Made by a program: the position numbers and the translations under genes. DNA of 64,000 nt. It comes from Vicinamibacterales bacterium. Lineage in GTDB: Bacteria > Acidobacteriota > Vicinamibacteria > Vicinamibacterales > UBA2999. The notes under the pieces were generated by a model. The model did not search any database, had not been told where the DNA came from, and saw only the letters and a program-made list of their open reading frames with translations. Location of the stretch: positions 22,942 through 86,941 of the forward strand of contig JBFWOG010000005.1 in the NCBI GenBank assembly GCA_050250645.1, given 5' to 3'. Every line of letters begins with the position of its first letter. The stretch's first letter is position 1. Below, piece by piece: positions 4,022 through 58,176 of this stretch.

Positions 4022-4040
4022 GAAATAAGAAATACGAAGT
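4001..4040 (+). repeat. AT-rich imperfect octamer repeat (about AAGTAAGA x5)
   Basis: gaagtaag aagtaaga tctaagaa ataagaaa tacgaagt. A strikingly AT-rich patch in a high-GC context, between convergent msrA and the LOG-family gene. Confidence 0.8.
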
Positions 4041-7116: not shown

Positions 7117-7923
7117 TCACGGCCCGAAGATCCGGCGGGCTGCCGCCAGCGCCCGTCCGAAGTACTCCGGCAGCGGCGCGCTCGTGCACCCGAGCTCGAG
7201 AATGATGGCGCCCGCGTAGCGGACCTCGCGCAGGGTGTGCGTGATCTCGCCCCAGTCGATCGTGCCGTCGCCCGGCGGCAGGTGGTCGTCGAACCGCCCG
7301 TGGTTGTCGGTCGCGTGCACGTGCGCGAGGCGCGGGCCGGCGACGCGCAGGCAGTCGTGCCAGACGTGGCCGAGCGTCGTGTGCCCGGTGTCCAGGCAGA
7401 CGGCGACCGACGGTGGCAGCGTGTCCAGCACGTAGGCGAACTCGTCGGGGTGACCGCCGATGAGGTGGGGCAGGGGCGTCTCGACGGTCAGCGTGAGCTC
7501 GTGGACGGCGAGGGCGCCGGCCAGCTCCTCGAGCGCGCTCCGGCAGTTGGCGAGGCGCCGCGGGACGTCCTGGCCCTCGCGGGGCACGTCGCTCGGGTGC
7601 ACGACGACGTAGCGGCCGCCGACCGTCTCGAGGGCCGTGGCGGCGGTCAGGATGGCGGCGATCGCGCCGCGGCGGTGGTGCGGGTTGTCCGCCGACAGGT
7701 CGAGCAGCCCCCCGAACGGCGCGTGAATCGATGCGGCTGCCATCCCGGCGTCGCGCAGCCGGTCGCGCACGGCGAGCGTCTGCGCGGGGTCCCACGGCGC
7801 GAAGTGCCGGGGCGGCGTCCCGATCTCGACGAGCGGGACGCCGGCCGCGGCGAGGGCGTCGAGCACCTCGAGGATCGGGCGTTCGACGCAGCCGCCCGTG
7901 GCGATCCCGATCGGCCAGCTCAT
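7117..7923 (-). CDS. Xylose-isomerase-like / AP-endonuclease-2 (endonuclease IV fold) TIM-barrel protein
   Basis: ORF 7117..8871 trimmed to ATG 7923 (MSWPIGIATGG...). Superfamily metal-ligand pattern SIHAPF, VVVHPS, TVETPL, CLDTGH, HVHATDNHGRFDDHLPPGDGTIDW, ILELG. The start overlaps the stop of the upstream gene by 4 nt. Confidence 0.75.
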   Translation of the reverse strand: MSWPIGIATGGCVERPILEVLDALAAAGVPLVEIGTPPRHFAPWDPAQTLAVRDRLRDAGMAAASIHAPFGGLLDLSADNPHHRRGAIAAILTAATALETVGGRYVVVHPSDVPREGQDVPRRLANCRSALEELAGALAVHELTLTVETPLPHLIGGHPDEFAYVLDTLPPSVAVCLDTGHTTLGHVWHDCLRVAGPRLAHVHATDNHGRFDDHLPPGDGTIDWGEITHTLREVRYAGAIILELGCTSAPLPEYFGRALAAARRIFGP

Positions 7924-9980: not shown

Positions 9981-12108
<2,128 letters not shown>

Positions 12109-21779: not shown

Positions 21780-22769
21780 TCAGGCTCCCGCCCCCTCGCG
21801 GCGGAAGACCGCGAGGTCGTAGCCCACCCACCCGTTGGCGAGGCACTCCTGGAGCGCGGCGCCCCCGAGCAGGTGCCCGAAGCGCGTGCCGGCCAGCGGC
21901 AGCCGGCCGAACAGGGCGACGAGAGCCGACACCACCCGGTCGCGCGGCCGCCCGAGCTCGAGCCACGGCGTCAGGTCCGTCGTCGACTCGCGGGCGAAGC
22001 CCGCGTGGCGGGCCAGCGCGTCGAGCTGCTCCCGGTCGACGAGCGTGTTGACCCGCCAGCCCGCGGCGAAGCGTTCGACCGCCCGCGCGGCGCGCGCCGT
22101 GCCCGCCGGCCGGCGCATGTCGTCGCAGATGACCAGGAGTCCACCCGGGCGCACCACCCGGGCGCACTCGGCCAGCAACGCCGCCGGATCGGGCCCATGG
22201 ACGAAGGACTCGATCGCGTACGCCAGGTCGACGGCCCCGATCGACGGCGGCAGCGCCGTGAAGTCTCCCTCGAGACAGGTCACGCGCTCGTCGAGCCCCG
22301 CAGCGTGGATGCGCTCCCGCGCCAGGCGCGCCTGCACGGGACTGAGGGTGAGGCCAGAAACGAACAGGGTGCCAGGGGTGCACTTCCAGGTGCCAGGGGT
22401 GCCAGGGGTGCCAGGGGTGCCAGGGGTGTCAGGGGTGTCAAAGGTGCTCTGCGTAGCCGACGAACCTGTCGAACCTGACGAACCCGTCGAACCCGTCGAA
22501 CCCGACGAACCCGACGAACCCGCAAGATAGACCATGCTCGCGCCCACGCCGCATCCTAGGTCCAGCAGGTGGTGGGGGCCGGGGCCCAGGGTGGGGAGGA
22601 GCGCGAGTATCTGGTCCTCCACGAAGTGGAAGGCCCCGGCGCGCGAGGTGATGCCGGGGCCCCACACGGCGCGGTGGATGGCGCCGCCGCCCTGCCCGAA
22701 TTGGACGAAGCCCGCGGTGCTGCGATCGTAGAAGCGGCGGACGTCGTCGGGCGCGAATCGCGGCGGCAT
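21780..22769 (-). CDS. Class I SAM-dependent methyltransferase carrying a repeat-encoded insertion
   Basis: ORF 21780..23066 trimmed to ATG 22769 (MPPRFAPDDVRRFYDRS...). Motif I is LLDLGCGVGAS. A roughly 45-aa low-complexity insert follows (SSGSSGSTGSTGSSGSTGSS...TPDTPGTPGTPGTPGT). The fold then resumes at LFVSGLTLS and VRPGGLLVICD. Confidence 0.75.
   Translation of the reverse strand: MPPRFAPDDVRRFYDRSTAGFVQFGQGGGAIHRAVWGPGITSRAGAFHFVEDQILALLPTLGPGPHHLLDLGCGVGASMVYLAGSSGSSGSTGSTGSSGSTGSSATQSTFDTPDTPGTPGTPGTPGTWKCTPGTLFVSGLTLSPVQARLARERIHAAGLDERVTCLEGDFTALPPSIGAVDLAYAIESFVHGPDPAALLAECARVVRPGGLLVICDDMRRPAGTARAARAVERFAAGWRVNTLVDREQLDALARHAGFARESTTDLTPWLELGRPRDRVVSALVALFGRLPLAGTRFGHLLGGAALQECLANGWVGYDLAVFRREGAGA
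22368..22446 (+). repeat. Tandem nonamer array (about GGTGCCAGG, roughly 8 units) inside the methyltransferase CDS
   Basis: ggtgccagg ggtgcactt ccaggtgcc aggggtgcc ... gtgtcaggg gtgtcaaag. Encodes TPGTPGTPG on the gene strand. Confidence 0.9.
22459..22521 (+). repeat. Tandem nonamer array (GWCGAACCY x7) inside the methyltransferase CDS
   Basis: gacgaacct gtcgaacct gacgaaccc gtcgaaccc gtcgaaccc gacgaaccc gacgaaccc. Same unit as the arrays at 39523 and 51404. Confidence 0.95.
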
Positions 22770-35224: not shown

Positions 35225-35485
35225 CTAGGCCTTGGCCTTGGCCTTCGGCTTCGCCTTGGTCTTCGCGCTCCGGGCGCGGGCGGTCGTCTTCGGGGTGACC
35301 CCGAGATGCGCCACCTGCTCCGCGTCGGGCGTGACGAGCTGGAAGAGCGGCGTCGCGACCTTCAGGTCGAGCTTGACCAGGCCGTGCCCGAACTGCACGT
35401 CGACGTGGTCGCCCGACCGGAACATGACGCATCCGATGCCCCACTCGTCCCGGGTGCGGTGCTGGATGTACTGGCCTTCTTTCAC
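35225..35485 (-). CDS. Small DUF3553-like protein with a Lys/Ala-rich tail
   Basis: ORF 35225..35617 trimmed to GTG 35485, which is preceded by AAGGAAGG. Sequence VKEGQYIQHRTRDEWGIGCVMFRSGDHVDVQFGHGLVKLDL... The upstream part of the ORF is antisense to the tRNA. Confidence 0.5.
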   Translation of the reverse strand: MKEGQYIQHRTRDEWGIGCVMFRSGDHVDVQFGHGLVKLDLKVATPLFQLVTPDAEQVAHLGVTPKTTARARSAKTKAKPKAKAKA

Positions 35486-35556: not shown

Positions 35557-35632
35557 TGGAGCCGGCGGTCGGACTCGAACCGACGACCTGCTGATTACGA
35601 ATCAGCTGCTCTACCAACTGAGCTACGCCGGC
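35557..35632 (-). tRNA. tRNA-Thr (anticodon CGU)
   Basis: Minus strand reads GCCGGCGTAGCTCAGTTGGTAGAGCAGCTGATTCGTAATCAGCAGGTCGTCGGTTCGAGTCCGACCGCCGGCTCCA. It has a 7-bp acceptor stem, anticodon loop TTCGTAA, T-arm GTCGG-TTCGAGT-CCGAC, and an encoded CCA. Confidence 0.9.
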
Positions 35633-35743: not shown

Positions 35744-36733
35744 CTACGCGGCCCGGGCCATGACCAGCATGAACCGTCCCGGGTCCGCCACCCAGCGGTT
35801 GGCCGGCTCGAACCCCGCCGCGCGCAGCGCGCCCTCGAAGGCGCCCACCTCGTACTTGTACGAGCTCTCCGTCCAGATCGTCTCGCCGGGGTCGAGGTCG
35901 AAGACGATGCCGGCGGCCGGGATGGCGACCCGCTGGCTGACCTGGCTGACCAGGTGCATCTCGACGCGCGAGGCCTCCCGGTTCCAGACGGCCTTGTGCG
36001 CAAAGCGGCCGATGTCGAAGTCGGCGCCCAGTTCCCGGTTGAGGTGCACCAGCAGGTTCTTGTTGAACGCCGCCGTCACGCCGAGCGGGTCGTCGTAGGC
36101 GAGCTGCAGCTCGCGTTCCGACTTCACCAGGTCCGCCCCGATCAGCAGGTGATCCCCCGGCGCGAGGGCCGCCCGCGCGTCGCGGAGGAACCGCGCCGCG
36201 CCGCCCGGGTCGAAGTTGCCGATGTTCGAGCCGAGGAAGAGCACCAGCGCGTGCTCTCCACGGCCCCGCGCCCGCGACGCCTCGACGAGGCCGGCCTCGT
36301 AGGTGCGCTGGTGCGTGACGACGGCGATGCCTGGCAGCTCGCCGAGGCGGTTGCCCGCGTTCTCGAGCGCGAGGGCGGAGACGTCCACGAGGTGCACCTG
36401 GCGCGTGCCCGTGGCCGGGAGCACGCCCGCGCGCAGCAGCCGCTCCAGCTTCTCGCCGTTGCCGGGCCCGAGCTCGATGACGACCGGGGGCGCGCCGGCG
36501 AGGCGCAGGATCTCGGCGCCGTGCGCGGCGAAGAGCCCCCGTTCCGCCCGGGTCACGGGGTACCAGGGCAGCAGGCAGATGGCGTCGAAGAGCGCCGAGC
36601 CCAGCGGGTCGTACAGTCCGCGCGAGGGCAGCTGGCGTGGCTTCTCGAGCAGGTACTGCCGGACCTCGGCCGCGAGCGCGGCCCGGGCCTCGGTGGCCGC
36701 GTCGGCCCGCGCCGTCTCGGTGACCTGGCTCAT
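35744..36733 (-). CDS. egtD: L-histidine N-alpha-methyltransferase (ergothioneine biosynthesis)
   Basis: ORF 35744..37771 trimmed to ATG 36733 (MSQVTETARAD...). LYDPLGSALFDAICLLPWYPVTRAE, ELGPGNGEK, LGSNIGNF, ESSYKY. Overlaps the egtB stop by 4 nt. Confidence 0.85.
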   Translation of the reverse strand: MSQVTETARADAATEARAALAAEVRQYLLEKPRQLPSRGLYDPLGSALFDAICLLPWYPVTRAERGLFAAHGAEILRLAGAPPVVIELGPGNGEKLERLLRAGVLPATGTRQVHLVDVSALALENAGNRLGELPGIAVVTHQRTYEAGLVEASRARGRGEHALVLFLGSNIGNFDPGGAARFLRDARAALAPGDHLLIGADLVKSERELQLAYDDPLGVTAAFNKNLLVHLNRELGADFDIGRFAHKAVWNREASRVEMHLVSQVSQRVAIPAAGIVFDLDPGETIWTESSYKYEVGAFEGALRAAGFEPANRWVADPGRFMLVMARAA

Positions 36734-38076
36734 GCCGTCCCCCTGACCGTCCGGAACGTGGCGTAGACGTGCGGGTAGTGCGCGCGGAACCAGTTGCGGA
36801 AGCTCGGGCGCAGCAGCTCGCGGGCGGTCGCGGTGGACGCGCCCTTCATGACGAAGTGCTGCCCGTCGAAGAAGTCGGCGGAGTACTCGGGGTAGCTGTC
36901 GATGGGGACGAAGCCGGGGAAGCCCGCGAACACCGTGGCCGTCCACTCCCACCCGTTGCCGAGGGTGTCGTCGAGGCCCCAGGCGGAGCGGCCCGCCGGG
37001 TGGGTGCCGACCGGCTCCGGCTCCCAGCTCGCGAAGTCGAAGACGCCGCGCGTCGCGTCCGGCGGCGCATCGCCCCACGGGTACCGCCGCGGCGCGCCGT
37101 CGGGCGCGCCGTACATCGCGCGCTGCATCTCGGCCTCGGTCGGCAGCCGCCGGCCGCGCCACCGGGCGTAGGCCGACGCCTCCGCGTGGCTCACGTAGAC
37201 CGGCCAGCGCTCGGGGAGGGGGAGCGACTCGAACATGCCGTGCCACCGCCACTCGCCGGCCTCGCGGCGCCAGAACGGCGGGTGGCTGGTGCCCGAGGCT
37301 TGGACCCACGCCCAGTCCTCGGGGCTCCACCACTGCGGGTCCTGGTAGCCGCCGGCATCGACGAAGGCCATGAACGCGGCGTTGGTCACGTTGTGGCGAT
37401 CGATGCCGAAGTCCGGCACCGTGGTGGTGATTCCCGGAAACTCGTTGTCCCACCCGAACGGGACCTCGCCCCGCGCCGCGCCCAGGGGCACCGTGCCGCC
37501 CGGCACGACGATCTCCTCGGGCGTGGCGCCTGGGCCGTCGGTCACGACGCGGTAGCCGGCGGGCGCGCGCTTCATCGCGTGCGGCAGGCGGTGCCACATG
37601 TAGAGCAGCGTCTCCTGGTGCATGGCCTCGTGCTCGAGGATCGCGTGCACGGCCTCGGCGCCGTCCATCAGGGGACGGCCGGGCTGGTCGAGGTCGGCCT
37701 CGGCCAGCGCCTGCAGCACGCGGCGGTCGGCCTCGGCGACGAAGCGCCGCACGGTCTCGCGATCGGGCCACGACGTGTGCGCGTCGGCGGCCGCAGGCGT
37801 CCCGGCCCCGTCGACCTCGGGATCGATCCCGCGCGCGAACAGCCGCTCGAGCCCCTCGTCCACGCCGGGCTCGCCCAGGCCGCGCTTGACGAGGGTGTTG
37901 AGGCTGAAGGCCGGCAGGTGCCCGTCGTAGAAGACGACGGGGTGGCGCAGGGCGATGGGCTGGGCGTAATAGGCGTCGGGGACCAGCAGGTCGAACAACT
38001 GCGCGGTGCGCGCGCGATTCCTCCGGTACCAGTCGAGCGCCTGCCCGCGGTCGATGCCCGCTCCTGTCGTCAGCAT
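36730..38076 (-). CDS. egtB: Ergothioneine sulfoxide synthase (DinB_2 + FGE-sulfatase domains)
   Basis: ORF 36730..39390 trimmed to ATG 38076, preceded by GGGAGA. HPVVFYDGHLPAF, EHEAMHQETLLYM, GWDNEFP, and C-terminal GNGWEWTAT...RNWF. Confidence 0.85.
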   Translation of the reverse strand: MLTTGAGIDRGQALDWYRRNRARTAQLFDLLVPDAYYAQPIALRHPVVFYDGHLPAFSLNTLVKRGLGEPGVDEGLERLFARGIDPEVDGAGTPAAADAHTSWPDRETVRRFVAEADRRVLQALAEADLDQPGRPLMDGAEAVHAILEHEAMHQETLLYMWHRLPHAMKRAPAGYRVVTDGPGATPEEIVVPGGTVPLGAARGEVPFGWDNEFPGITTTVPDFGIDRHNVTNAAFMAFVDAGGYQDPQWWSPEDWAWVQASGTSHPPFWRREAGEWRWHGMFESLPLPERWPVYVSHAEASAYARWRGRRLPTEAEMQRAMYGAPDGAPRRYPWGDAPPDATRGVFDFASWEPEPVGTHPAGRSAWGLDDTLGNGWEWTATVFAGFPGFVPIDSYPEYSADFFDGQHFVMKGASTATARELLRPSFRNWFRAHYPHVYATFRTVRGTA

Positions 38077-38157: not shown

Positions 38158-39510
38158 ATGTCCGCGCGCTACGATCTCGTCGTCATCGGCACCGGCACGG
38201 CCGGGAGCACCATCGCCACGACCTGTCGCCGGGAGGGCTGGTCCGTCGCCGTCGTGGACCGCCGGCCGTACGGCGGCACGTGCGCGAACAGGGGGTGCGA
38301 CCCGAAGAAGGTCATCGTCGGCGCCGCGCACGCCTTCGACCAGGCGCACGCGTTCCTCGGCAAGGGCCTCTGGTCGGAGGGCCTCCGGATGGCCTGGGGG
38401 GAACTGCAGGCGTTCAAGCGGACCTTCACCGATCCGGTGCCCGAGTCCCGTGAGGAAGCGTACCGCACGGCCGGCATCGATCGCTACCACGGCACCGCGC
38501 GGTTCACGGGCCCCGCCACGGTCGAGGTCGAGGGCACGACGCTCCACGCCCGCCACGTGGCCATCGCCACCGGCGCCACGCCACGGCGCCTCGACGTGGC
38601 CGGGGCGGAACACGTGCGCACGTCGGACGACTTCCTCGACCTCGCCCGCCTGCCGGACTCGATCGCCTTCATCGGTGGCGGCTACATCTCCCTGGAGTTC
38701 GCGCACGCGGCCGCGCGCGCCGGCGCGCGGGTGACCGTGCTGCACCGCGGCAGGCGGATCCTCGAGGGCTTCGACCCCGACCTCGCCGGCGCGCTGGCCG
38801 AGCGCAGCCGCCTCGCGGGCATCGACGTCGTGCTCGGCGCCGAGGTGACGGCCGTGTCGCCGAACGGCGCTGGCGGCTTCGATCTCGCCGTGGACGGCGC
38901 GGAGGGCCCGCGCACGGTGGCCGCGGCGCTCGTGGTACACGGCGCGGGGCGCGTCCCGGATCTCGGGGACCTCGACCTGCCCGCCGGTGGCGTGGCGCAC
39001 GGCCGGCGCGGCGTGGCGGTCGACGACCGCCTGCGGAGCGTGTCGAACCCCACGGTCTACGCGGCCGGGGACGCCGCCGACACCGGCACGCCCGGCCTGA
39101 CGCCCGTCGCGGGGCTCGAGGGACGCATCGCGGCCGCGAACCTCCTCGGCGGTGACGAGCGCCTCGACGCGGGCCAGGTCCCGAGCGTCGCGTTCACGCT
39201 GCCGCCGCTGGCGCGCGTGGGCCTGCTCGAGGCGGAGGCCCGCGAGCGGGGCCTCGCCGTCGAGGTGAAGCACGGCGACACGTCCGGCTGGTTCTCGTCG
39301 CGCCGCCTGGGGGAACCCGTCTCGGCCTTCAAGACCCTCGTCGAGACGGGCACGGGCCGGCTGCTCGGCGCGCACCTGCTCGGCCCGCACGCCGACGAGG
39401 TCATCAACGTCTTTGCCCTGGCCATCGCCCGGGGCCTGACGGTCGCCGACCTGAAACGAGTCACCTGGGCCTACCCGACGAACGGCTCGGACATCAGCTA
39501 CATGCTCTAG
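38158..39510 (+). CDS. FAD-dependent pyridine nucleotide-disulfide oxidoreductase (glutathione/mercuric reductase-like)
   Basis: YDLVVIGTGTAGSTIA, redox CxxxxC GGTCANRGCDPKK, a second Rossmann IAFIGGGYISLEFA, and a dimerisation-domain tail. Confidence 0.85.
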   Translation: MSARYDLVVIGTGTAGSTIATTCRREGWSVAVVDRRPYGGTCANRGCDPKKVIVGAAHAFDQAHAFLGKGLWSEGLRMAWGELQAFKRTFTDPVPESREEAYRTAGIDRYHGTARFTGPATVEVEGTTLHARHVAIATGATPRRLDVAGAEHVRTSDDFLDLARLPDSIAFIGGGYISLEFAHAAARAGARVTVLHRGRRILEGFDPDLAGALAERSRLAGIDVVLGAEVTAVSPNGAGGFDLAVDGAEGPRTVAAALVVHGAGRVPDLGDLDLPAGGVAHGRRGVAVDDRLRSVSNPTVYAAGDAADTGTPGLTPVAGLEGRIAAANLLGGDERLDAGQVPSVAFTLPPLARVGLLEAEARERGLAVEVKHGDTSGWFSSRRLGEPVSAFKTLVETGTGRLLGAHLLGPHADEVINVFALAIARGLTVADLKRVTWAYPTNGSDISYML

Positions 39511-39522
39511 GGCCGCACACCA

Positions 39523-39642
39523 GACGAACCCGTCGAACCAGACGAACCCGTCGAACCTGACGAACCTGACGAACCTGTCGAACCTGACGAACCTGTCGAA
39601 CCCGACGAACCTGTCGAACCCGACGAACCCGACGAACCCGTC
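39523..39642 (+). repeat. Tandem nonamer array (GWCGAACCN, about 13 units), intergenic
   Basis: gacgaaccc gtcgaacca gacgaaccc gtcgaacct gacgaacct ... gacgaaccc. Fills the gap between two convergent stops (39510 and 39643). Confidence 0.95.
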
Positions 39643-39828
39643 CTAGCAGTCGAGGCACCGCGGTTCGTCGAAGATTTCCTTCTGCTTGTCGGGATGGTCC
39701 CGCGCGTAGTCGATGAGGCAGCGCACGGCCTTGCCGATGTCCGGGAGGCCATGCGTCCGGGCCATCTCCTCGAGAAAGAGCGCCTTGTCGGAGCCGAGCA
39801 CGAGCGTTTCCTTGCGGTCGTCCTTCAT
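39643..39828 (-). CDS. Small hypothetical protein, possibly ribbon-helix-helix
   Basis: 61 aa, MKDDRKETLVLGSDKALFLEEMARTHGLPDIGKAVRCLIDYARDHPDKQKEIFDEPRCLDC. Unbiased composition with a beta-alpha-alpha pattern. Confidence 0.5.
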   Translation of the reverse strand: MKDDRKETLVLGSDKALFLEEMARTHGLPDIGKAVRCLIDYARDHPDKQKEIFDEPRCLDC

Positions 39829-39929
39829 AGCCGGATTATCGCACCGGCAGCCCTGCGGCCCCCGGCCGGGTTAAACCCCCCGGCGCGCGGCCCGCTCTAA
39901 CGAGGCAGGACTCTTCGAGGGAGGGAGGC

Positions 39930-40505
39930 ATGACGCGCACGGGACAGGCACTGGCGGCACTGATGGTGGTCGTCGCCGCGACGGCGACGCCCCTGGCCGA
40001 GACGCGGCAGGCGATGTTCGAGGGACGCCCGGCCTTCGGCGCCGGGCTCGAGCGCGGCTACTACGTGTGGCGCGACGGCGACCGCTGGCACGTCCGCTGG
40101 ACGACGACGGGGCGGCCGCAGACCTTCTCCGGCACCGTGGTGGCCGCGGGGGGCGACATCGCGGACCTGGACCGCGTGGACCTCGAGCGCGAGGCCAGGG
40201 TGGTGAGGACCGGATCGCGGCCCGTGCTCGAGCGCGGGCCGCGCGGCCGGCTCCACGTGGAACCGCGCCCGACGGTGGCGGTGGTGCCGGCGGGCGGCGA
40301 CCGCGTGGAGCACGACGACAACGTCATCCGGTTCCACGCGCGCACCGACGCCGACATCGACGGGTTCGACTTCACCCCGGCGCCCGGCGTCCGCGAGCTC
40401 CGCTTCGTGCTCGAGGTCGACGGCCAGAGCCGGGCCGTCGACGTGGAGGTCGGCCGCGACAACCGGCGGCCCGACGGCAACCCGTTCACCGTGGCGCTTC
40501 GCTAG
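39930..40505 (+). CDS. Hypothetical secreted protein
   Basis: GGGAGG lies upstream of ATG 39930. Signal-like MTRTGQALAALMVVVAATATPLA. 191 aa. Confidence 0.55.
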   Translation: MTRTGQALAALMVVVAATATPLAETRQAMFEGRPAFGAGLERGYYVWRDGDRWHVRWTTTGRPQTFSGTVVAAGGDIADLDRVDLEREARVVRTGSRPVLERGPRGRLHVEPRPTVAVVPAGGDRVEHDDNVIRFHARTDADIDGFDFTPAPGVRELRFVLEVDGQSRAVDVEVGRDNRRPDGNPFTVALR

Positions 40506-40584: not shown

Positions 40585-43628
<3,044 letters not shown>

Positions 43629-43632
<4 letters not shown>

Positions 43633-48996: not shown

Positions 48997-50747
48997 CCCG
49001 CCGGCCGCCACGGCCGGCCGGCCTCGCGTTCGCGATCGAGCAGGCGGCGGAACACGCCGCCCCTCGCCAGCAGCGCCTCGAACCCTCCGCGCTCCACCAC
49101 CCGCCCCTCCTCGAGCACCACGATCTCGTCGGCGCGGACGAGCGCCTCGAGGCGATGGCTGACGAGCAGCACGGCGTGGCCGTCGGCCAGCCGCCTCGCC
49201 TGCTCCGCGATGAGCCCCGCCGTCGCCGGGTCCACCTGGGACGCCGGCTCGTCGAGCAGCACCACCGGCGTGCCGGCGAGCAGCACGCGCGCGAGCGCCA
49301 GCCGCTGGCGCTCGCCCCCCGACAGGCTCGCGCCCTGCTCGCCAATCCACGTCCCGAGTCCCGCGGGCCACGCCTCCACCGTCGACCGCAGGCCGGCCCG
49401 GTCGAGCGCGTCCACCAGCAGGCTGTCGTCCGCCTCGGGGCGGGCGAGGCGGAGGTTCTCGGCCAGCGTCCCCGTGAAGATGTCCGTCCGCTGCGCCATC
49501 CACGACACGCGGCGGCGGAGCGAGGGCTCGTCGTACGCGTCGAGGGCCCGCCCGTCCAGCCGCACGCTGCCGGACGGCGCGTCGTAGAACCGCAGCAGCA
49601 CCTGCACGAGGGTGGACTTGCCGGCGCCGCTCTCGCCGACGAGCGCGACGAGCCGTCCCGGTTCGAGGCGCAGGTCGACGCCGGCGAGCGCCGGTCGTGA
49701 CTCGCCGGGGTAGGTGAACGTGAGGCCCGACACCTCGAGCACGCCCGTCCCGCCAGGGGGCGGAAGCGCGGCGGCCGGGGCGGGGCGCGGCGCCGCGGGC
49801 GGCGCGTCGAGGCCGGGGACCCGGGTCGCGGCCGTCCACGTGCCGGCCAGCGCCTGGATGGCCGCCGGCAGCGGCGCGACGGCCTCGAAGCTCGCGAGCG
49901 CCACGAGGGCGGCGACGGCCAGCTGCACGCCGGTCACGTCCCCGGCGACGACGCGCGGCGCGATCCACGCCACGACCGCGACTGCCGTCAGGTCCGCCAG
50001 CGCCGCGGCCGCCGACGCCCCGAGCGAGCGCGCGCGCTCGGCGGCGTGTTGCGCCCGCGCGAGCCGGCCGTCGAGGCGGGCGAGGTCGTCCGCGTGCGCC
50101 GGGCCCGCGCCGAAGGCGAGCAGGTCGGCCGCGCCCTGCACGCCGTCCACGAGCCGCGCGTGCACCTCGGCCCGCAGCGTCACCCGGGCCGCCTCGGCGC
50201 GGGCGCCGAGCCGCCACGCGGCGAGCGGGACGACGAGGCCCGCGAGCACGAGGCCCGACACGGTCACGAGCGCGGCGCCCCCGTCGATGCGGCCGATGAT
50301 CCCGGCCGCGAGCATCGTCACCAGCCCCGCGCTGGCGAGCGGCCCGGCCACGCCGACGTAGGCATGGTCGACCGTGTCGACGTCGGCCACCAGCCGGGCG
50401 AGCAGGTCGCCGCTCGCGTGCCGGCGCCAGGCGGCCGGCACGAGCGGCGCGAGCGCCAGGAAGGCGTGGATGCGGAGGCGGGCCAGCAGGCGCAGCGTGG
50501 CGTCGTGCGAGACGAGCCGCTCGACGTAGCGCGCGATGCCCCGGCCGATGCCGAAGAAGCGGACGCCGACGATCGCGACCTGCAGGGCGGCAATCGGGGG
50601 ACGGCGCGCCGCCGAGGCGATGAGCCACGCGGACGTGCCCATGAGCGCCACGGATGCCGCGACGGTCACGGCCATCAGCAGCGCGCCGGCGGCCAGCCGG
50701 GCGGCGAGGGGCTTCGCCAGGCGCGCGAGCCCGCGCGCGACCCTCAC
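48993..50747 (-). CDS. cydC: Thiol reductant ABC exporter subunit CydC
   Basis: Part of ORF 48993..52253 from GTG 50747, with a GTGA overlap onto the cydD stop. Six-TM domain, Walker A GESGAGKSTLV, LSGGERQR, Walker B VLLDEP. Confidence 0.85.
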   Translation of the reverse strand: MRVARGLARLAKPLAARLAAGALLMAVTVAASVALMGTSAWLIASAARRPPIAALQVAIVGVRFFGIGRGIARYVERLVSHDATLRLLARLRIHAFLALAPLVPAAWRRHASGDLLARLVADVDTVDHAYVGVAGPLASAGLVTMLAAGIIGRIDGGAALVTVSGLVLAGLVVPLAAWRLGARAEAARVTLRAEVHARLVDGVQGAADLLAFGAGPAHADDLARLDGRLARAQHAAERARSLGASAAAALADLTAVAVVAWIAPRVVAGDVTGVQLAVAALVALASFEAVAPLPAAIQALAGTWTAATRVPGLDAPPAAPRPAPAAALPPPGGTGVLEVSGLTFTYPGESRPALAGVDLRLEPGRLVALVGESGAGKSTLVQVLLRFYDAPSGSVRLDGRALDAYDEPSLRRRVSWMAQRTDIFTGTLAENLRLARPEADDSLLVDALDRAGLRSTVEAWPAGLGTWIGEQGASLSGGERQRLALARVLLAGTPVVLLDEPASQVDPATAGLIAEQARRLADGHAVLLVSHRLEALVRADEIVVLEEGRVVERGGFEALLARGGVFRRLLDREREAGRPWRPAG

Positions 50748-52387
50748 GGGACCCGCCTCCCGCCGGCCATCCGCACCACCCGGTCCGCCGCGGCCAGGGT
50801 CGCCCGGCGGTGCGACACGAGCAGCACGGTCCGGCCCATGCGCGCCTCGGCGAGCCCCGCGACGACGGCGGCCTCGGTGTCGGCGTCGAGTTCCGAGGTC
50901 GGCTCGTCGAGCAGGAGCAGCGGCGCCGCCTTCAGGTAGGCGCGCGCCAGCGCCAGCCGCTGCGCTTCGCCGCCCGACAGGCCCGCCCCGAGCTCGCCCG
51001 TGCGGGTGGCCAGGCCGCGGGGAAGGCGGTCGACGACGCGGTCGAAGGCCGCCAGCCGCATGGCGCGACGCACTTCGGCCTCGGACGCCGCTGGCGCGCC
51101 GAGCCGCAGGTTGTCGAGAAGGGTGCCGTGGAAGAGATGGGGACGCTGCGGGGCCCAGCTCACCGCCGCCCGCCACGCGTCCGGCGTCCACGCGTCCAGC
51201 CGCACGCCGTCGACGAGCACCGCGCCGTCGGCCGGGTCGACGAAGCGCAGGAGCGCCGCGAGGAGCGTGCTCTTGCCCGCGCCGCTCGGTCCGTCGAGCC
51301 CGAGCAGTTCGCCTGCCGCGACCTCCATCGAGAATCCGGCGAGGGCCTGTCCCCGTCCCGCGCCGTAGTCGACGCGCACGTTGGTGAACGACAGGCGGGG
51401 GGGCTTCGTCAGGTTCGTCAGGTTCGTCAGGTTCGTCGGGTTCGTCGGGTTCGTCGGGTTCGACAGGTTCGACAGGTTCGTCCCCAGCGCGTCGTCGAGC
51501 GCCGCGAGCTGGCGTCCGGTCTCCTGTCCCGCGAGGCCGGCGTGGAACGACTGGCCGAGCGTCCGCAGCGGGCGGTAGAACTCGGGCGCGAGCAGCAGCA
51601 CGGCGAGTGCCTCGGGGAAGGCCACCCGGCCGTAGAGGAGCCGCAGGCCGATCTCCACCGCGACGATGGCCGTGCCCAGCGTGGCGAGCAGCTCGAGCAC
51701 CAGCGCCGACAGGAAGCCCACGCGCAGCACGTCCATCGTCAGCCGCCGGTAGCGCTCGGCCGTCTCGCCCAGGCGGACCGACTCCTCGGCGACGCGGCCG
51801 AACGCCTTGAGGGTGACCAGCCCCTGCACCGCATCGAGGAAGCGGGCGGTCAGGCGGGAGAGGTCGACCCACTGCGCGGCGGTCCGCTCCCGGGCGATGC
51901 CGCCGATGAGCCACATGAAGAGCGGGATGAGCGGGCCCGTGACGACGAGCACCGCGGCGGACAGGGGATCGATCGCGACGACCGCGGTGACGACGGCGAC
52001 GGGAACGAGCACCGCGAGCGCGCGATGCACCTGGTAGCGCGCCACGTAGGCGTCGAGGGCGTCGAGGCCGGCCGTCAGCGTCGAGGTCACCGAGCCGGCC
52101 GGCAGTTGCTCGAGGCGCCGCGGACCCGCGCCAAGGGCGCGGCGGGCATGGGCATCCCGGAGCCGGGCCTTGAGCCGGACGAGCGTCTGGCTGGCCGAGG
52201 TGTCCGAGGCCCAGCCGATCGAGGCGCGCGCCACCGCGAGGGCGGCGAGCCATGCGAGCCCCCCCGCGGCCGCGGCCACCGGGCCGCCGCTACCGAGCCC
52301 CGCCAGCACCCCCGCGAGGACGACGGCCTGGGGAATGACCAGCACGCCCGCCAGGGCGCCCAGGCAGATGGCGAGGGAAGGGGACAT
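50744..52387 (-). CDS. cydD: Thiol reductant ABC exporter subunit CydD, with a repeat-encoded linker
   Basis: 547 aa. TMD, then TNLSNLSNPTNPTNPTNLTNLTNLTK, then an NBD (GPSGAGKSTLL, LSGGEAQR, LLLDEP). Confidence 0.85.
   Translation of the reverse strand: MSPSLAICLGALAGVLVIPQAVVLAGVLAGLGSGGPVAAAAGGLAWLAALAVARASIGWASDTSASQTLVRLKARLRDAHARRALGAGPRRLEQLPAGSVTSTLTAGLDALDAYVARYQVHRALAVLVPVAVVTAVVAIDPLSAAVLVVTGPLIPLFMWLIGGIARERTAAQWVDLSRLTARFLDAVQGLVTLKAFGRVAEESVRLGETAERYRRLTMDVLRVGFLSALVLELLATLGTAIVAVEIGLRLLYGRVAFPEALAVLLLAPEFYRPLRTLGQSFHAGLAGQETGRQLAALDDALGTNLSNLSNPTNPTNPTNLTNLTNLTKPPRLSFTNVRVDYGAGRGQALAGFSMEVAAGELLGLDGPSGAGKSTLLAALLRFVDPADGAVLVDGVRLDAWTPDAWRAAVSWAPQRPHLFHGTLLDNLRLGAPAASEAEVRRAMRLAAFDRVVDRLPRGLATRTGELGAGLSGGEAQRLALARAYLKAAPLLLLDEPTSELDADTEAAVVAGLAEARMGRTVLLVSHRRATLAAADRVVRMAGGRRVP
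51404..51483 (+). repeat. Tandem nonamer array (RGGTTCGWC x9) inside cydD
   Basis: aggttcgtc x3, gggttcgtc x2, gggttcgac, aggttcgac x2, flanked by partial units. This is the reverse complement of the unit at 22459 and 39523. Confidence 0.95.
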
Positions 52388-52433: not shown

Positions 52434-52595
52434 CTACCTGTGACTCCTCGCGATGATACGGACCATCTTGAGGTTGATCCACACGAACCGCCACATCTGC
52501 CACGGGATGAACGTGCGGAAGAACCGCGTGGCCGGGGTGGGCAGGGTCGCGTAGGCGTGCTCCACGGGGCGGACCGGGTCCGGAGGCGTGCTCAT
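52434..52595 (-). CDS. Small (53 aa) hypothetical protein coupled to the SQR-like gene
   Basis: Not in the track. My own translation is MSTPPDPVRPVEHAYATLPTPATRFFRTFIPWQMWRFVWINLKMVRIIARSHR, ending at TAG. The ATG is 4 nt after the SQR stop, with GGAG upstream. Confidence 0.45.
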   Translation of the reverse strand: MSTPPDPVRPVEHAYATLPTPATRFFRTFIPWQMWRFVWINLKMVRIIARSHR

Positions 52596-52599
52596 GGGA

Positions 52600-54054
52600 T
52601 CACTCCGGGATGAGGCTCCAGCCGGGGCGGAGCCGGGCCTTGTACAGGAACAGGTGGTGGAGGAGGATCTTGATCCAGTGGCCGGCGAGGCCGATCTCGC
52701 CGAAGGTGGCGTCGAGGTCGCGGCCGTACTCCGGGTACCGGTCGAAGTCCGGGACGATCGGGAAGACCGTCATGGCGGCGGCGGTGCCGCGGAAGGGGTT
52801 GGCGCCGGCGGAGGCGACGCAGGCGGCGCCCATCTCGGCCATCGACGCGGTGTGCGTGGGCGCGGGCGCGCCGCCCATCATGTCGGCGATGCTGTGCGCG
52901 ACGGCCTTGCCGATCATCGCCGAGGGCATGCCCGTGCGCGGCGGCGCCGGCGCGATCGGCGCGCCGCCCGGGGTCTTGCGGGGCTCCGAGATCGCGTGGG
53001 GCGGCGCGAAGGCGATGCCGCACGCGAAGAGCGAGCCGTATCGGGGCGACTGGTAGGTGCGCGGCCAGTCGCGGGCGGACCACTCGGCGAAGGGCCGCGC
53101 CGTGTAGTCCGCGTCGACGCGCATGAAGCCGTTCGGGGCGAAGACCTCCGGCGTGATGTCGGCGCCGCCCCGGTCCACGGCCGTCAGCCCGACCCCCGAG
53201 AAGGGCGGCAGCAGCATCGCGAAGTCGAACGGCGCCTCGCCGGCCTCGCCGTCCAGGGTCTCGTAGTGGCAGACGCCGGGCTCGACGCCGCGCACGTGCG
53301 CCCGCGTCGTCCAGGTCAGGCCGCGCTCGGCGAACAGCGACTCCGCGAAGATCTTGCTCGGCGTCACGTAGCCGCCGCGCTTCAGGTGCAGGCCGCCCAT
53401 GCCGAAGTCGCCGAGCTCGTACTCGTTCGAGATCCAGGCGATGTCGGCGAGGTGGCGGACCCCGCGCGCCCGGAGCTCGAACTCGAGGTTGACGATGTAC
53501 TCGAAGGCGGCGCCCTGGCACGTGCAGGCGCCGTGGCCCGTGCCGACGAGGAAGCGCTGGCGCTCGCCGGCCTGCATGCGGTCGACGGCGCGGCCGAGGG
53601 CGGCCGCCGTGTCGGCCGCGTGCGCCTCGGTGCACACCGAGAGGCTGTGCCCGGACGGGCCCAGCCCCGGCGTGGCGCCGAAGTTGAGCTTGGGGCCCGT
53701 CGCGTTGATCAGGAAGTCGTACTTGAGGGTCCCGACCTCGCCCTCGTGCCCGGGGCGCGTGGACTCGGTGACGACGTAGGGCGCCGGGTCGCCGGCGTCG
53801 CCCTCGGGGTGCAGGCGCACGGCGCGGGCCTGGTGGAACGCGATCCCCGCCCGCTCGTACACCGGCGCGAGGGGGAACGTGACCTGGCGCGGCGACATCA
53901 GGCCGACGCCCACCCAGATGTTGGAGGGAATCCAGTTGTAGTGCGGCTGCGGCGAGACGACGGCGACTTCGTCGGTGCGCGGCAGCCACTTGCGCAGGAA
54001 GGCGGCAGCGGTATGGCCGGACACCCCGGCCCCGAGGACGACGACGCGAGCCAT
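52600..54054 (-). CDS. sqr: Sulfide:quinone oxidoreductase-like FAD-dependent oxidoreductase
   Basis: VVVLGAGVSGHTAA (FAD), GHGACTCQGAAFEY (SQR-type Cys region) and FACGIAFAPP. 484 aa. Confidence 0.75.
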   Translation of the reverse strand: MARVVVLGAGVSGHTAAAFLRKWLPRTDEVAVVSPQPHYNWIPSNIWVGVGLMSPRQVTFPLAPVYERAGIAFHQARAVRLHPEGDAGDPAPYVVTESTRPGHEGEVGTLKYDFLINATGPKLNFGATPGLGPSGHSLSVCTEAHAADTAAALGRAVDRMQAGERQRFLVGTGHGACTCQGAAFEYIVNLEFELRARGVRHLADIAWISNEYELGDFGMGGLHLKRGGYVTPSKIFAESLFAERGLTWTTRAHVRGVEPGVCHYETLDGEAGEAPFDFAMLLPPFSGVGLTAVDRGGADITPEVFAPNGFMRVDADYTARPFAEWSARDWPRTYQSPRYGSLFACGIAFAPPHAISEPRKTPGGAPIAPAPPRTGMPSAMIGKAVAHSIADMMGGAPAPTHTASMAEMGAACVASAGANPFRGTAAAMTVFPIVPDFDRYPEYGRDLDATFGEIGLAGHWIKILLHHLFLYKARLRPGWSLIPE

Positions 54055-54220
54055 GTCACCCTCCCTTCCACCGCGGGCCGCGCATGCACGCCGCCCGCCT
54101 CAGGTCACCACCGCGCGGCCACCAGCCACAGGGCCCGGCACGTCACCCGGTAGAGGAGCCGGTAGGCCGCCCGGTTCACGATGCGAGGGATCGTCATGTC
54201 GAACACCACGACGCGCCCGC

Positions 54221-54260
54221 CAAATCACGAGATCACCAGATCACGAGATCACCAGATGTC
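54221..54260 (-). repeat. Tandem octamer array (GTGATCTS on the gene strand, about 5 units)
   Basis: Plus strand reads caaatcac gagatcac cagatcac gagatcac cagatgtc. On the minus strand the cydB stop TGA lies within the first, degenerate unit. Confidence 0.9.
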
Positions 54261-55275
54261 AGTATTCCAGGTGACTGCCGGCCGTGATCCGGCGCCGGAA
54301 CACCCAGTACGTCCAGCCCTGGTAGGCCAGGACGACGGGCACGAAGAGCCCGGCGACCACGGTCATCACCTTCAGGGTGTAGGGGGTGGACGACGCGTTG
54401 TAGATGGTGAGGCTCCACCCGGGGTCGAGGCTCGAGACCATCACCCGCGGGAAGAGCGCCATGAAGATCGTGATCGTCGACAGCACGATGCCGAGCGAGG
54501 TCATCGTGAACGCCCAGCCCATGCGGTCGTGGTGGACGAACCAGCCGGCCGCGAGCATCGCGCCGAGCGCCCCGAGCGGGATGATGCCGGGGTTGATCCC
54601 GAAGCGCTGGAAGGCGTCCGTCCAGACGTAGGTCAGGATGACGAAGACGTAGACGAAGAAGGTGGCGATCGGCCCGATGCGGCGCGCCGCGTGGCGCGCG
54701 CGCGTGCGGATCGGGTCGGTGCTCTTGAGGTTCAGGAAGATCGCCCCGTGCGTCATGAAGACGGTGAGCGAGGCGAGCCCCGTGAGCACGGCGTAGGGGT
54801 TGAGGAGGTTGAAGAACCCGCCGACGTACTGGTGGTCGCCGTCGATCGGCACGCCCTTCAGCATGTTGCCGAGCGCGACGCCCCAGAGCAGCGCGGGAAT
54901 CGCGCTGCCGGCGAAGATCAGCAGGTCGAAGGTGCGCCGCCAGGTGGGGTTCCGGTCCTTGCTGCGGAACTCGAAGGCGACGCCCCGCACGATCAGGGCG
55001 ACCAGCATGAGGAACAGCGCCAGGTAGAAGCCGCTGAAGAGCGTGGCGTACCACTCGGGGAAGGCCGCGAAGATGGCGCCGCCCGCCGTGAGCAGCCAGA
55101 CCTCGTTGCCGTCCCACACCGGGCCGATCGTGTTGATGATCCGGCGCCGCTCGTCGTCGGTCTGCCCGAGGAAGGGCAGCAGGATGCCGACGCCGTAGTC
55201 GAAGCCCTCGAGGACGAAGAAGCCGATGAAGAGCACGGCCACGAGCACGAACCAGAGCGTGTTCAGGTCGAACAT
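54259..55275 (-). CDS. cydB: Cytochrome bd ubiquinol oxidase subunit II
   Basis: MFDLNTLWFVLVAVLFIGFFVLEGFDYGVGILLPF...WDGNEVWLLTAGGA. 338 aa. Confidence 0.95.
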   Translation of the reverse strand: MFDLNTLWFVLVAVLFIGFFVLEGFDYGVGILLPFLGQTDDERRRIINTIGPVWDGNEVWLLTAGGAIFAAFPEWYATLFSGFYLALFLMLVALIVRGVAFEFRSKDRNPTWRRTFDLLIFAGSAIPALLWGVALGNMLKGVPIDGDHQYVGGFFNLLNPYAVLTGLASLTVFMTHGAIFLNLKSTDPIRTRARHAARRIGPIATFFVYVFVILTYVWTDAFQRFGINPGIIPLGALGAMLAAGWFVHHDRMGWAFTMTSLGIVLSTITIFMALFPRVMVSSLDPGWSLTIYNASSTPYTLKVMTVVAGLFVPVVLAYQGWTYWVFRRRITAGSHLEY

Positions 55276-55285
55276 GGCGTCCCCC

Positions 55286-56674
55286 TCAGGCTCCCGCCGG
55301 CGCCTCGAGCGCCGGCCCGGGGTGCAGTTGGACGGCGGAGGCGCCAGCCGTGGCGTACTTCGCCAGCAGGTAGACGTCCGCGACCATCAGCGCGCCGTAG
55401 ATCACCGTGAAGCCGACGAGCGAGGTCAGGACCTCGCCCGCGGTGACCGCCGGCGAGACCGCGTCCACGGTCTTCTGGAGGCCGAACACGATCCACGGCT
55501 GGCGGCCGATCTCCGTGAAGATCCACCCCGCGGAGTTCGCCAGGTACGGCAGCGCGATGGCCCACGGCAGGAGCCGCACCAGCCTGGCGCTGCCGCCGAC
55601 GCGGTCGCGCCAGACGTCCACGGTGGCCCACAGCGCGGCGAGCAGCATGAGCAGCCCCGCCCCGATCATCAGGCGGAAGGTCCAGTAGGTCCACTTGACC
55701 GGGGGCACGTAGTCGCCGGGGCCGAACTGCTGCTCGGCGAGCCGCTGCAGCTCGTTGATCCCCTTCACCTCGCCCTCGAACCGGTTGTAGGCGAGGAAGC
55801 TCAGGAGCCCGGGCACCTTGAGGGCGATGATGTCGCGCCGGGCCTCCTCGTCGCCGACGGTGAAGAGCGACATCGCGGCCGGGTTCTCGGTCTCCCACAG
55901 GGCCTCGGCCGCGGCCATCTTCATCGGCTGGATGCGGACCATGTACTGCGCCTGGTTGTGCCCGACCGCCATCACGGCGAGGGTGGCCACGAGCGCGTAG
56001 ACGGCCCCGATCCGGAACGACAGCGAGAAGGCCTCGAGGTCGCCCTCGTCCCGCGACCGGTGCAGGTGCCACGCGCTGATGCCCAGGATGAAGAAGGCCG
56101 CCGTCGCCATCGCGCCGGCCAGCACGTGCGGGAACTGCACGAAGACGTGCGGGTTGGTCGCCAGGGCGAAGAAGTCGTTCATCTCGGCGCGGCCGTTGCG
56201 GACGACGTAGCCGAGCGGCTGCTGCATGAACGAGTTGGCGATCAGGATCCAGAGCGCCGACAGGTTCGACCCCACGGCGACCGCCCAGATCGTCCCGAGG
56301 TGGAGCTTGCGGGGCAGCTTGTCCCACCCGAAGATCCACAGGCCCAGGAACGTCGACTCGAGGAAGAAGGCGAGCAGGGCCTCGATGGCCAGCGGCGCGC
56401 CGAAGACGTCGCCGACGAAGCGGGAGTACTCCGACCAGTTCATGCCGAACTGGAACTCCTGCACGATGCCCGTCGCGACGCCCATCGCGAAGTTGATGAG
56501 GAAGAGCTTGCCCCAGAACTTCGTGAGGCGGAGGTAGACGTCACGGCCCGACACGAACCAGGCGGTCTGCAGCAGCGCAACCACCCAGACCAGGCCGAGC
56601 GTGAGGGGGACGAAGAAGAAGTGGTAGACGGTGGTGATCCCGAACTGCCATCGGGCGAGGGTCACGGCATCCAT
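55286..56674 (-). CDS. cydA: Cytochrome bd ubiquinol oxidase subunit I
   Basis: ORF 55286..57328 trimmed to ATG 56674 (MDAVTLARWQFGITTVYHFFFVPLTLG...). Q-loop region and GWIFTEIGRQPW. Confidence 0.95.
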   Translation of the reverse strand: MDAVTLARWQFGITTVYHFFFVPLTLGLVWVVALLQTAWFVSGRDVYLRLTKFWGKLFLINFAMGVATGIVQEFQFGMNWSEYSRFVGDVFGAPLAIEALLAFFLESTFLGLWIFGWDKLPRKLHLGTIWAVAVGSNLSALWILIANSFMQQPLGYVVRNGRAEMNDFFALATNPHVFVQFPHVLAGAMATAAFFILGISAWHLHRSRDEGDLEAFSLSFRIGAVYALVATLAVMAVGHNQAQYMVRIQPMKMAAAEALWETENPAAMSLFTVGDEEARRDIIALKVPGLLSFLAYNRFEGEVKGINELQRLAEQQFGPGDYVPPVKWTYWTFRLMIGAGLLMLLAALWATVDVWRDRVGGSARLVRLLPWAIALPYLANSAGWIFTEIGRQPWIVFGLQKTVDAVSPAVTAGEVLTSLVGFTVIYGALMVADVYLLAKYATAGASAVQLHPGPALEAPAGA

Positions 56675-58040: not shown

Positions 58041-58176
58041 GAGATTTGGTGATCTCGTGATCTCGTGATCTCGTGATTTGGGATCTTGTGATCTTGTGAT
58101 CTTGTGATTTGCGATCTGGGAATCGCAGCGAACGTCAATCGTCAATCTGCAATCTTCAATCTGCAATCTTCGTGAT
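58041..58176 (+). repeat. Compound tandem octamer array (about 17 units; GTGATCTY-type then CAATCTK-type)
   Basis: gagatttg gtgatctc x3 gtgatttg ggatcttg tgatcttg x2 tgatttgc gatctggg aatcgcag cgaacgtc aatcgtca atctgcaa tcttcaat ctgcaatc ttcgtgat. Begins 3 nt after the stop at 58038 and ends about 45 nt before the ku RBS. Confidence 0.95.

Follow-up and report, generated by a model that had tools for sequence, protein, structure and literature searches.

A dispersed short-tandem-repeat family with a CGAACC core in Vicinamibacterales, probably made and remodelled at the DNA level

What brings one nine-nucleotide unit, in head-to-tail copies, to three separate loci of a single stretch of bacterial DNA, in both orientations, once between genes and twice inside them? 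The question is raised by 64,000 nucleotides of a Vicinamibacterales bacterium of the phylum Acidobacteriota (GenBank assembly GCA_050250645.1, contig JBFWOG010000005.1, positions 22,942 to 86,941 of the forward strand). This whole stretch is referred to as the window, and coordinates are counted from its first letter. Array A1 (39519-39642, plus orientation) is intergenic and comprises 13 exact GWCGAACCN units, of the form GWCGAACCY, at 39523-39639, with a partial unit at each end. A2 (22457-22522, plus orientation) has 7 exact units and lies inside a minus-strand methyltransferase gene, and A3 (51405-51482, reverse orientation) has 8 exact units and one degenerate unit and lies inside cydD. 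The reading to which the evidence points, with a probability that we put at about 70%, is that A1, A2 and A3 belong to a lineage-specific dispersed short-tandem-repeat family of Vicinamibacterales that is made and remodelled at the level of DNA.

Tandem Repeats Finder (TRF), which was used for calling tandem arrays, reports all three with a period of 9: A1 at 39519-39640 with 13.6 copies, A2 with 7.3 and A3 with 8.7. They are rotations or reverse complements of one consensus, with 84-94% matches. That these loci share one nonamer had been claimed in an initial annotation made from the sequence alone, and is borne out for each of them both by TRF and by reading the sequence. The arrays fit the definition of long-unit simple sequence repeats (units of about 1-11 bp repeated head to tail). 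In the window, whose G+C content is 72.4%, GWCGAACC is matched 40 times when both strands are counted, against 6.44±2.43 expected from dinucleotide-preserving shuffles. None of 100 shuffles reaches 40 (the maximum is 13), and 28 of the 40 matches lie inside the three arrays, the remaining 12 being singles at a frequency near chance. The initial annotation had tied its claim to an enrichment beyond chance, and within the window that enrichment is present. Two further public assemblies from this population carry the arrays unchanged, and another contig stops within A1; an artefact of a single assembly is thereby excluded.

The gene that hosts A2 (21780..22769, minus strand; 329 residues from the ATG at 22769) is identified by Pfam as a class I S-adenosylmethionine (SAM)-dependent methyltransferase. 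Its sense strand is the minus strand, on which the array reads (GGT TCG WCN)n and encodes GSS/GST at residues ~83-105. Translation yields GSSGSSGSTGSTGSSGSTGSS, in agreement with the Gly-Ser-Ser/Thr reading originally given. A second nonamer array (GGTGCCAGG, 22367..22447, plus strand, ~5-9 units) adjoins A2 and encodes TPG/TPD, the rest of an insert of 47 residues. Homologs of the methyltransferase are ~280-290 residues long compared with 329 for the window protein, and the insert is missing from all nine of the nine homologs compared. The Pfam match is split at the insert and resumes at profile position 21, which places the insert just after SAM-binding motif I. In the AlphaFold model, residues 88-132 have a pLDDT (predicted local distance difference test) of 25-32, lack secondary structure and join a helix to the strand that follows it in the Rossmann fold. 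The neighbouring GGTGCCAGG array (core GGCACC plus CCT; 22367-22447) has an 8-nt counterpart, GGCACCCT, repeated 10.8 times at 7454-7536 of an acidobacterial metagenome-assembled genome (MAG; L012). The design of core plus spacer with 8- and 9-nt versions therefore covers more than one repeat family.

In the case of A3, the host gene is cydD (50744..52387, minus strand), a subunit of the thiol-reductant ATP-binding cassette exporter according to Pfam. On its sense strand the array reads (WCG AAC CYG)n and encodes TNL/TNP/SNL at residues ~302-328 (TNLSNLSNPTNPTNPTNLTNLTNLT); the Thr-Asn-Leu/Pro of the initial annotation is correct as far as it goes and is completed by Ser, which alternates with Thr. 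The closest CydD homolog is 67% identical, and the homologs point to a Vicinamibacterales acidobacterium. When 14 CydD proteins are aligned, the A3 stretch falls in the variable linker that joins the membrane domain to the ATPase domain; there the homologs have unrelated, non-repetitive sequence. The AlphaFold model of CydD has a mean pLDDT of 84.6; its only segment below 50, residues 303-323, is the repeat. Two side observations concern this locus. The cydABDC cluster (52434-56665) has two extra genes, for 484 and 53 residues, between cydB and cydD, and these are kept in the closest relative. In the closest CydD homolog, the N-terminus as annotated (MRSDHQITRSRDHQI…; L117, 10001-10049) is a translated GTGATCTG octamer array and the true start probably lies downstream, which illustrates how such arrays corrupt gene calls.

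Each of the two coding inserts is an in-frame tandem repeat, absent from the homologs and predicted to be disordered (operationally, a repeat-generated disordered insert). Opposite strands of one unit serve as sense in the methyltransferase and in CydD, as had been noted, and do so in different frames. The sequence of the units is informative about the level at which the repeat is maintained. In 26 phased units of the window arrays, the core CGAACC does not vary at any of 156 positions, and minority bases make up ~40% at two of the three positions of the spacer. Four unit variants, G[A/T]CGAACC[C/T], are common to A1, A2 and A3. The positions that vary are non-coding in A1, synonymous third positions and Ser/Thr first positions in A2, and Leu/Pro second positions and Thr/Ser first positions in A3. 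A pattern of variation that is equal despite such different coding roles belongs to the DNA and not to the peptides. The same peptide linker encoded by non-repetitive DNA in orthologs, which the initial annotation had named as evidence to the contrary, is not what the methyltransferase and CydD homologs described above contain. Because these orthologs lack the inserts, and the closest relative has no A1 at the corresponding site, the three arrays are recent.

Period and coding status go together in the window: a period of 6 or 9 is found in all six coding arrays and in one of the six intergenic arrays (Fisher P=0.015). This accords with the initial proposal that a period of 9 explains tolerance inside genes. 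The accompanying statement that every intergenic array other than A1 has period 8 does not hold, two of them having period 7 (4001-4040 and 58135-58171). A DNA-level process rather than peptide selection behind the recurrence of the unit is supported, and peptide-level selection and chance are effectively excluded. The original suggestion of spreading or expansion at the DNA level, as opposed to selection for a peptide, is upheld in this respect by the orthologs, by the use of strands and frames, by predicted disorder and by the relatives; its spreading part, understood as the copying of blocks of units, is not, and is taken up below.

Two convergent stop codons, a TAG at 39508-39510 on the plus strand and a minus-strand stop at 39643-45, are 132 nt apart, and A1 covers 124 nt of this gap. 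It had been described as filling this space exactly; the convergent stops are there, and 8 nt are left over on the left side. The TAG, 8 nt before the array, terminates a gene for a pyridine-nucleotide disulphide oxidoreductase (38158..39510, plus strand; Pfam). The opposite stop belongs to a 61-residue open reading frame (39643..39828, minus strand) that matches no Pfam family and is also called as a gene in the public assemblies. This stop abuts the trailing partial unit of A1, ~3 nt past the last full unit. Within this reading frame the unit appears once in inverted form (GGTTCGTC, 39662-39669) and encodes D-E-P; a conserved inverted single unit was not found in L121, whose 61-residue gene is unrelated. 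In the closest relative available (L120, UvrA 86% identical) A1 is missing at the same site, and a non-repetitive spacer follows the equivalent stop codon. No open frame crosses the array. Rfam has no match for A1 (a tRNA is the sole Rfam match in the window), no intrinsic terminator (hairpin plus U-tract) was found on either strand at 39300-40000, and no sigma-70-like promoter was found at the array. A known RNA family, a terminator or a promoter at A1 is accordingly rejected on the outcome of the Rfam, terminator and promoter searches. Compared with shuffled sequences, the predicted RNA fold of A1 has z=-2.3 for the plus strand and z=0.03 for the minus strand.

The wider distribution of the unit comes from a scan of GTDB, with one representative genome per species and a search pattern of three tandem units. 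Coding status was assigned with a gene caller based on log-likelihood, whose calls for the window agree with the public annotation. At least 111 loci were found (the counts that follow, in this paragraph and the next two, are among the matches listed). Vicinamibacterales or other Acidobacteriota MAGs account for 29 of the 111, and five related MAGs have at least 3-5 separate loci each. The longest array of a locus has a median of 7.1 copies in Acidobacteriota vs 4.25 in other phyla, and six or more copies are present at 18 of 29 Acidobacteriota loci compared with 15 of 82 loci elsewhere (Fisher P=3e-5). Arrays of the relatives have period 9 or 8, the same CGAACC core, a variable spacer of 2-3 nt and 5-21 units, and 4 of the 29 eight-kb Acidobacteriota loci contain a further independent array. 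The family is thus dispersed, in the sense of having many loci per genome (three in 64 kb here), and lineage-enriched. Metagenomes scanned for five exact units yield at least 120 stretches, with arrays of up to 36 copies and many of them at contig ends. Seven IMG/VR viral contigs (L242-L248) carry at least four exact GWCGAACCY units.

Among the relatives, 27 of 30 period-9 arrays are intergenic and three are inside genes, a non-coding bias to be set beside the one intergenic array in three of the window. A test free of thresholds finds 21 of 30 arrays without an open frame reaching 150 nt to both sides. The 8-nt CGAACC versions of relatives occur only outside called genes. Same-direction, convergent and divergent spacers hold the relatives' intergenic arrays in the proportion 16:7:4, compared with a background of 151:33:33. 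A1, which the initial annotation treated as an exception among intergenic arrays, is on this showing (~90% of the relatives' arrays being intergenic) the typical form. The coding arrays A2 and A3 are the exceptions, tolerated since 9 = 3×3. In other phyla, 25 of 36 arrays are inside genes; these are short (3-5 copies) and are read as EPV, DEP, NPS, TNL, GSS/GST and FDG. The unit is read in all frames across phyla and is therefore not tied to one peptide.

Comparison of relatives also bears on how such arrays behave. L024 and L095, which are 96.5% identical over 5.3 kb, share an orthologous array that has 10 units in one and 9 in the other (TAGGTTCG ×3 vs ×1), and in which 8- and 9-nt units are mixed. 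Spacers resemble one another more within a genome (mean distance 0.651) than between genomes (0.777; permutation P=0.004): GTCGAACC is found at all three loci of one MAG and GACGAACC at all five of another, and the window uses both at all three loci. Such similarity is in keeping with spreading or homogenisation inside each genome. Arrays often lie side by side in inverted orientation, and such pairs could form long imperfect hairpins across intergenic gaps. In 13 of 14 such pairs, the G-rich array (GGTTCGnnn) precedes the C-rich one (nnnCGAACC), read on either strand (binomial P=0.002). The split is 7:0 for genome loci and 6:1 for independent metagenome loci. Inverted pairs are located at L106 2302-2596, L097 7290-7481, L050 6403-6605, L024 473-669 and L071 7649-7884, with further loci in L142, L169, L180 and L217-L219.

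Several properties that might have unified the arrays were tried and rejected. A G-quadruplex (at least four G3 tracts with loops of 1-7 nt) can be drawn in 7 of 36 arrays, in A2 and not in A1 or A3. As for a seed resembling a repetitive extragenic palindrome (REP), isolated GGTTCG…CGAACC palindromes are not enriched outside arrays: neither the window nor 110 kb of unbiased relatives contains any. No motif is shared by the flanks of the 36 arrays, which speaks against a mobile element that has conserved ends or makes target duplications. For a Rho-type C-rich loading site, unpaired arrays in same-direction spacers are 7 C-rich to 3 G-rich among the matches listed, which is not significant. Orientation linked to replication finds no footing in the GC skew, which is uniformly weakly positive across a window that has arrays in both orientations.

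The proposed explanation can be put as follows. The unit would consist of a fixed hexamer core, CGAACC, and a variable spacer of 2-3 nt, in a family that is mainly intergenic and of which A1 would be typical. Whole units would be gained and lost by replication slippage or unequal recombination, a gain and loss that is seen in relatives and presumed for the window. Recurrence at many loci might come about by ectopic seeding within the genome, by gene conversion, or by a core-specific bias in the origin of arrays. A2 and A3 would be cases in which the 9-nt version arose in genes, or landed there, at disordered sites that tolerate insertion, with the frame kept (9 = 3×3). The GSS/GST and TNL/TNP peptides would then be by-products of sense strand and frame and not targets of selection.

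A number of points weigh against this explanation. A1 and A3 show no difference in copy number across three assemblies, a weak comparison in that the assemblies are 99.9% identical and represent one population. The order of unit variants among A1, A2 and A3 is not shared above chance (P≈0.28), and the copying of multi-unit blocks between them is rejected as a demonstrated process on that ground. An array may grow from a one-unit seed or may arrive ready-made. Because the core was fixed in the three units searched for, part of the core conservation in relatives is imposed by ascertainment. Conservation of the core in genomes of 60-72% GC, persistence at an orthologous site and the 13:1 polarity of inverted pairs exceed what plain neutral slippage provides, and could reflect selection or a dedicated mechanism.

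Selection would enter most directly if the intergenic arrays were cis-acting elements, either multimers of a GGTTCG/CGAACC site for a binding protein or inverted hairpins serving as barriers to transcription or stabilisers of mRNA (in the manner of REPs and bacterial interspersed mosaic elements, BIMEs), with the coding copies as spill-over. In favour of such an element, the core is conserved with a varying spacer, and an array is kept at an orthologous site in two species; three genomes also have arrays of the GTGATCTN octamer family, described below, at matching intergenic positions. Many arrays, among the matches listed, lie right beside stop codons, and inverted pairs are able to form long intergenic hairpins. 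On the other hand, the spacer classes in which arrays are found are near background, among the same matches, and arrays take either orientation to transcription. A1 itself has a single orientation, no terminator or promoter signal and an unremarkable fold on the minus strand (the z values are given above), is absent from the closest relative and matches no Rfam family, and a 9-bp spacing is off the helical repeat. Taken together, these make a selected cis-element unlikely. A dedicated, sequence-specific mechanism that lays down the arrays, whether by templated addition at break ends and end joining or by a copying protein that recognises the core, is clearly less probable again. Its more specific form, in which a templated polymerase (telomerase-like, a reverse transcriptase or of PrimPol type) adds GGTTCGnnn units to 3' ends at breaks before the ends are rejoined, is marginally less so than the general one. 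The polarity of inverted pairs (7:0 and 6:1; P=0.002, among the matches listed) is as expected if the G-rich strand were added to both 3' ends. A fixed core with a genome-specific spacer flavour is template-like, conserved flanks and target duplications are missing, and the window has a gene for the end-joining protein Ku. No candidate enzyme or template has been identified, however, and fold-back template switching by a G-rich nascent strand gives the same polarity. A fixed template sits awkwardly with spacers that vary inside single arrays and with an array in which units of 8 and 9 nt are mixed, and gain and loss by slippage is sufficient for array growth. If true, a dedicated mechanism would explain why the core is fixed, why spacers have a genome-specific flavour, why inverted pairs are polarised 13:1 and how arrays enter genes, and would offer a route for the short-repeat families of cyanobacteria, Xanthomonas and Beggiatoaceae.

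Convergent selection for flexible peptide linkers, with A1 as an unrelated array or a decayed coding remnant, is very improbable. GSS/GST and TNP/TNL are typical linker compositions and do stand at linker or loop positions; they are nonetheless unrelated peptides, read from opposite strands and in different frames, and the insert is dispensable in homologs. The longest of the three arrays is the non-coding A1, which has the same four variants and no open frame across it. The C/T variation is, in the frame of CydD, a non-conservative Leu/Pro change, and the family is ~90% intergenic in relatives, among the matches listed. Least credible of all, to the point of being negligible, is an origin in chance, base composition or faulty assembly. 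At 72% G+C low-complexity matches are common, and octamer singles are near chance. Against this stand the shuffles, whose largest count is 13, and the fact that the three arrays, independent of one another, all fall into a single class out of ~14,500 possible for nonamers. There is, in addition, the recurrence of the arrays in two other assemblies (and the contig that runs into A1), and the same family is found in many related genomes. The DNA-level origin of a dispersed repeat family, for all the points listed against it, is the reading retained here.

To our knowledge, dispersed single-unit families have been known for decades in a few bacterial lineages, and their multi-locus spread and role are unexplained. 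The short tandemly repeated repetitive (STRR) heptamers of cyanobacteria, reportedly described by Mazel et al. in 1990, are said to be comparable dispersed short tandem units. For Vicinamibacteria and Acidobacteria tandem repeats, no description of a CGAACC family was found in the literature. Among systems that are described, the nearest parallels are the dispersed heptamers of cyanobacteria, Xanthomonas and Beggiatoaceae. The GGGNATC-type heptamers of Xanthomonas and Nostoc form dispersed arrays of 2-26 units, mostly non-coding and near the ends of open reading frames (Rehm et al. 2015, PMC4692102). These arrays are kept between the same genes in related species, at variable length and occasionally inverted, and their function is not established (PMC4692102). 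The CGAACC family resembles them in its dispersal, non-coding bias, nearness to the ends of reading frames, inverted arrangements and variation of length. It differs in that GGGNATC units have 7 nt, form G-quadruplexes and prefer four units, whereas CGAACC units have 9 or 8 nt, qualify as G-quadruplexes in 7 of 36 arrays among the matches listed and have no preferred number. The host lineage of the CGAACC family, unlike that of GGGNATC, is Acidobacteriota, and its 9-nt period allows in-frame coding copies. TAACTGA repeats, found in marine Beggiatoaceae, cyanobacteria and Bacteroidetes, occupy ~170 intergenic loci per genome without related units recurring (MacGregor 2015, PMC4679880). Their phylogenetic distribution is patchy and no spreading mechanism is evident (PMC4679880). 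They are mostly in sets of 2-6 copies just upstream of start codons, suggesting translational control (PMC4679880). A single unit at many loci is common to TAACTGA and CGAACC, but CGAACC arrays are longer, have a variable spacer and show no positional preference for start codons.

The repeats of Borg extrachromosomal elements are recent and fast-evolving, and occur both in intergenic DNA and in open reading frames, where they are perfect and give intrinsically disordered amino-acid repeats (Schoelmerich et al. 2023, PMC9879509). A2, A3 and the UvrA array behave in a like manner. Borg units, however, are independent at each locus, A-rich and carried by archaeal extrachromosomal elements, whereas one G+C-rich CGAACC unit is found at many loci of a bacterial chromosome. 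In contingency loci, simple sequence repeats that vary by slippage switch genes by shifting the frame or the promoter spacing (reviewed in PMC11868660). The likeness is in the tandem short units and in copy number, which in the CGAACC family would also change by slippage. As an identification, a phase-variation contingency locus is rejected: period 9 keeps the frame, A1 lies between convergent stops without a promoter-like site, and the hosts are housekeeping genes. A REP/BIME palindromic element is rejected on unit length (9 nt vs ~20-40 nt), the non-palindromic unit and the lack of a shared flanking motif. A CRISPR (clustered regularly interspaced short palindromic repeats) array is rejected on the contiguity of the 9-mers, which have no unique spacers, as against repeats of 24-48 nt. 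What sets the CGAACC family apart is its architecture of core plus spacer, the lack of a G-quadruplex signature, the polarity rule, its lineage and its entry into genes on both strands.

The CGAACC family extends the phenomenon of dispersed short tandem units to Acidobacteriota, a dominant and poorly studied soil phylum. Its features make the question more tractable: the core is fixed and the spacer free, units of 8 and 9 nt are mixed, inverted pairs have a strong polarity, and each genome has its own variants. Recent insertions in conserved housekeeping proteins (CydD, the methyltransferase and UvrA) are datable, with orthologs giving the empty site. The arrays are a ready source of new disordered protein segments. 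They also interrupt assemblies made from short reads, and in annotation they lengthen predicted proteins and give rise to spurious N-termini.

Other short-unit families are present in the window and its relatives. Non-ascertained arrays of period 7 or 8 number 6.6 per 100 kb at Acidobacteriota loci and 6.2 in the window, vs 0.7 in other phyla (among the matches listed). The period-8 arrays of the window are one family, GTGATCTN, with GATC in each unit and both orientations represented (2791-2868, 54220-54257 and 58049-58117). Its arrays recur in relatives, in L117 at 4222-4250, 8060-8101 and 10008-10049 and in L118 at 5906-6014, and keep the same intergenic positions in these relatives, whose CydD has an identity of no more than 58-67%. 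In the window and L117, an array immediately follows the cydB stop; in the window, L117 and L118, an array (3.6 to 13.6 copies) separates the gene for a 189-residue protein from that for Ku. The GTGATCTN arrays keep their places over long evolutionary distances. Further recurring units are AGCCCTC-like heptamers at three loci and ATGGCAG in two MAGs, across different Vicinamibacterales MAGs. Sites of other recurring short units are L050 3355-3488, L058 3349-3387 and 4503-4546, L109 7468-7533, L008 3826-3857 and L106 4803-4844. An inverted pair of GGCAGGTA octamer arrays lies between convergent genes at L121 14660-14784.

UvrA (40585-43632, array at 41230-41313) has a hypervariable insert, at alignment columns ~190-450, whose length and sequence are species-specific; the homologs range from 957 to 1076 residues. 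Tandem peptide repeats in this region are VSS in the window protein, SAPSA/VALSSVAD in P0242, AADDADRN in P0279 and ATAKAIALQPEGE ×3 in P0331. Upstream of A1, genes of the ergothioneine type (Methyltransf_33 and DinB_2/FGE-sulfatase, 35744-38076) adjoin the oxidoreductase gene that precedes the array. A contig from a different sequencing run (L114) equals the window except for 34 mismatches packed into a 210-bp patch of an EgtB-like gene (36916-37126), which suggests either a recombined segment or a variant strain in the population. A GGCCTT hexamer array (region of 35228-35263 and 35560-35632) encodes the Lys/Ala-rich C-terminal tail (…KTKAKPKAKAKA*) of a small minus-strand open reading frame, and the minus-strand tRNA that is the window's Rfam match is ~300 nt from this array.

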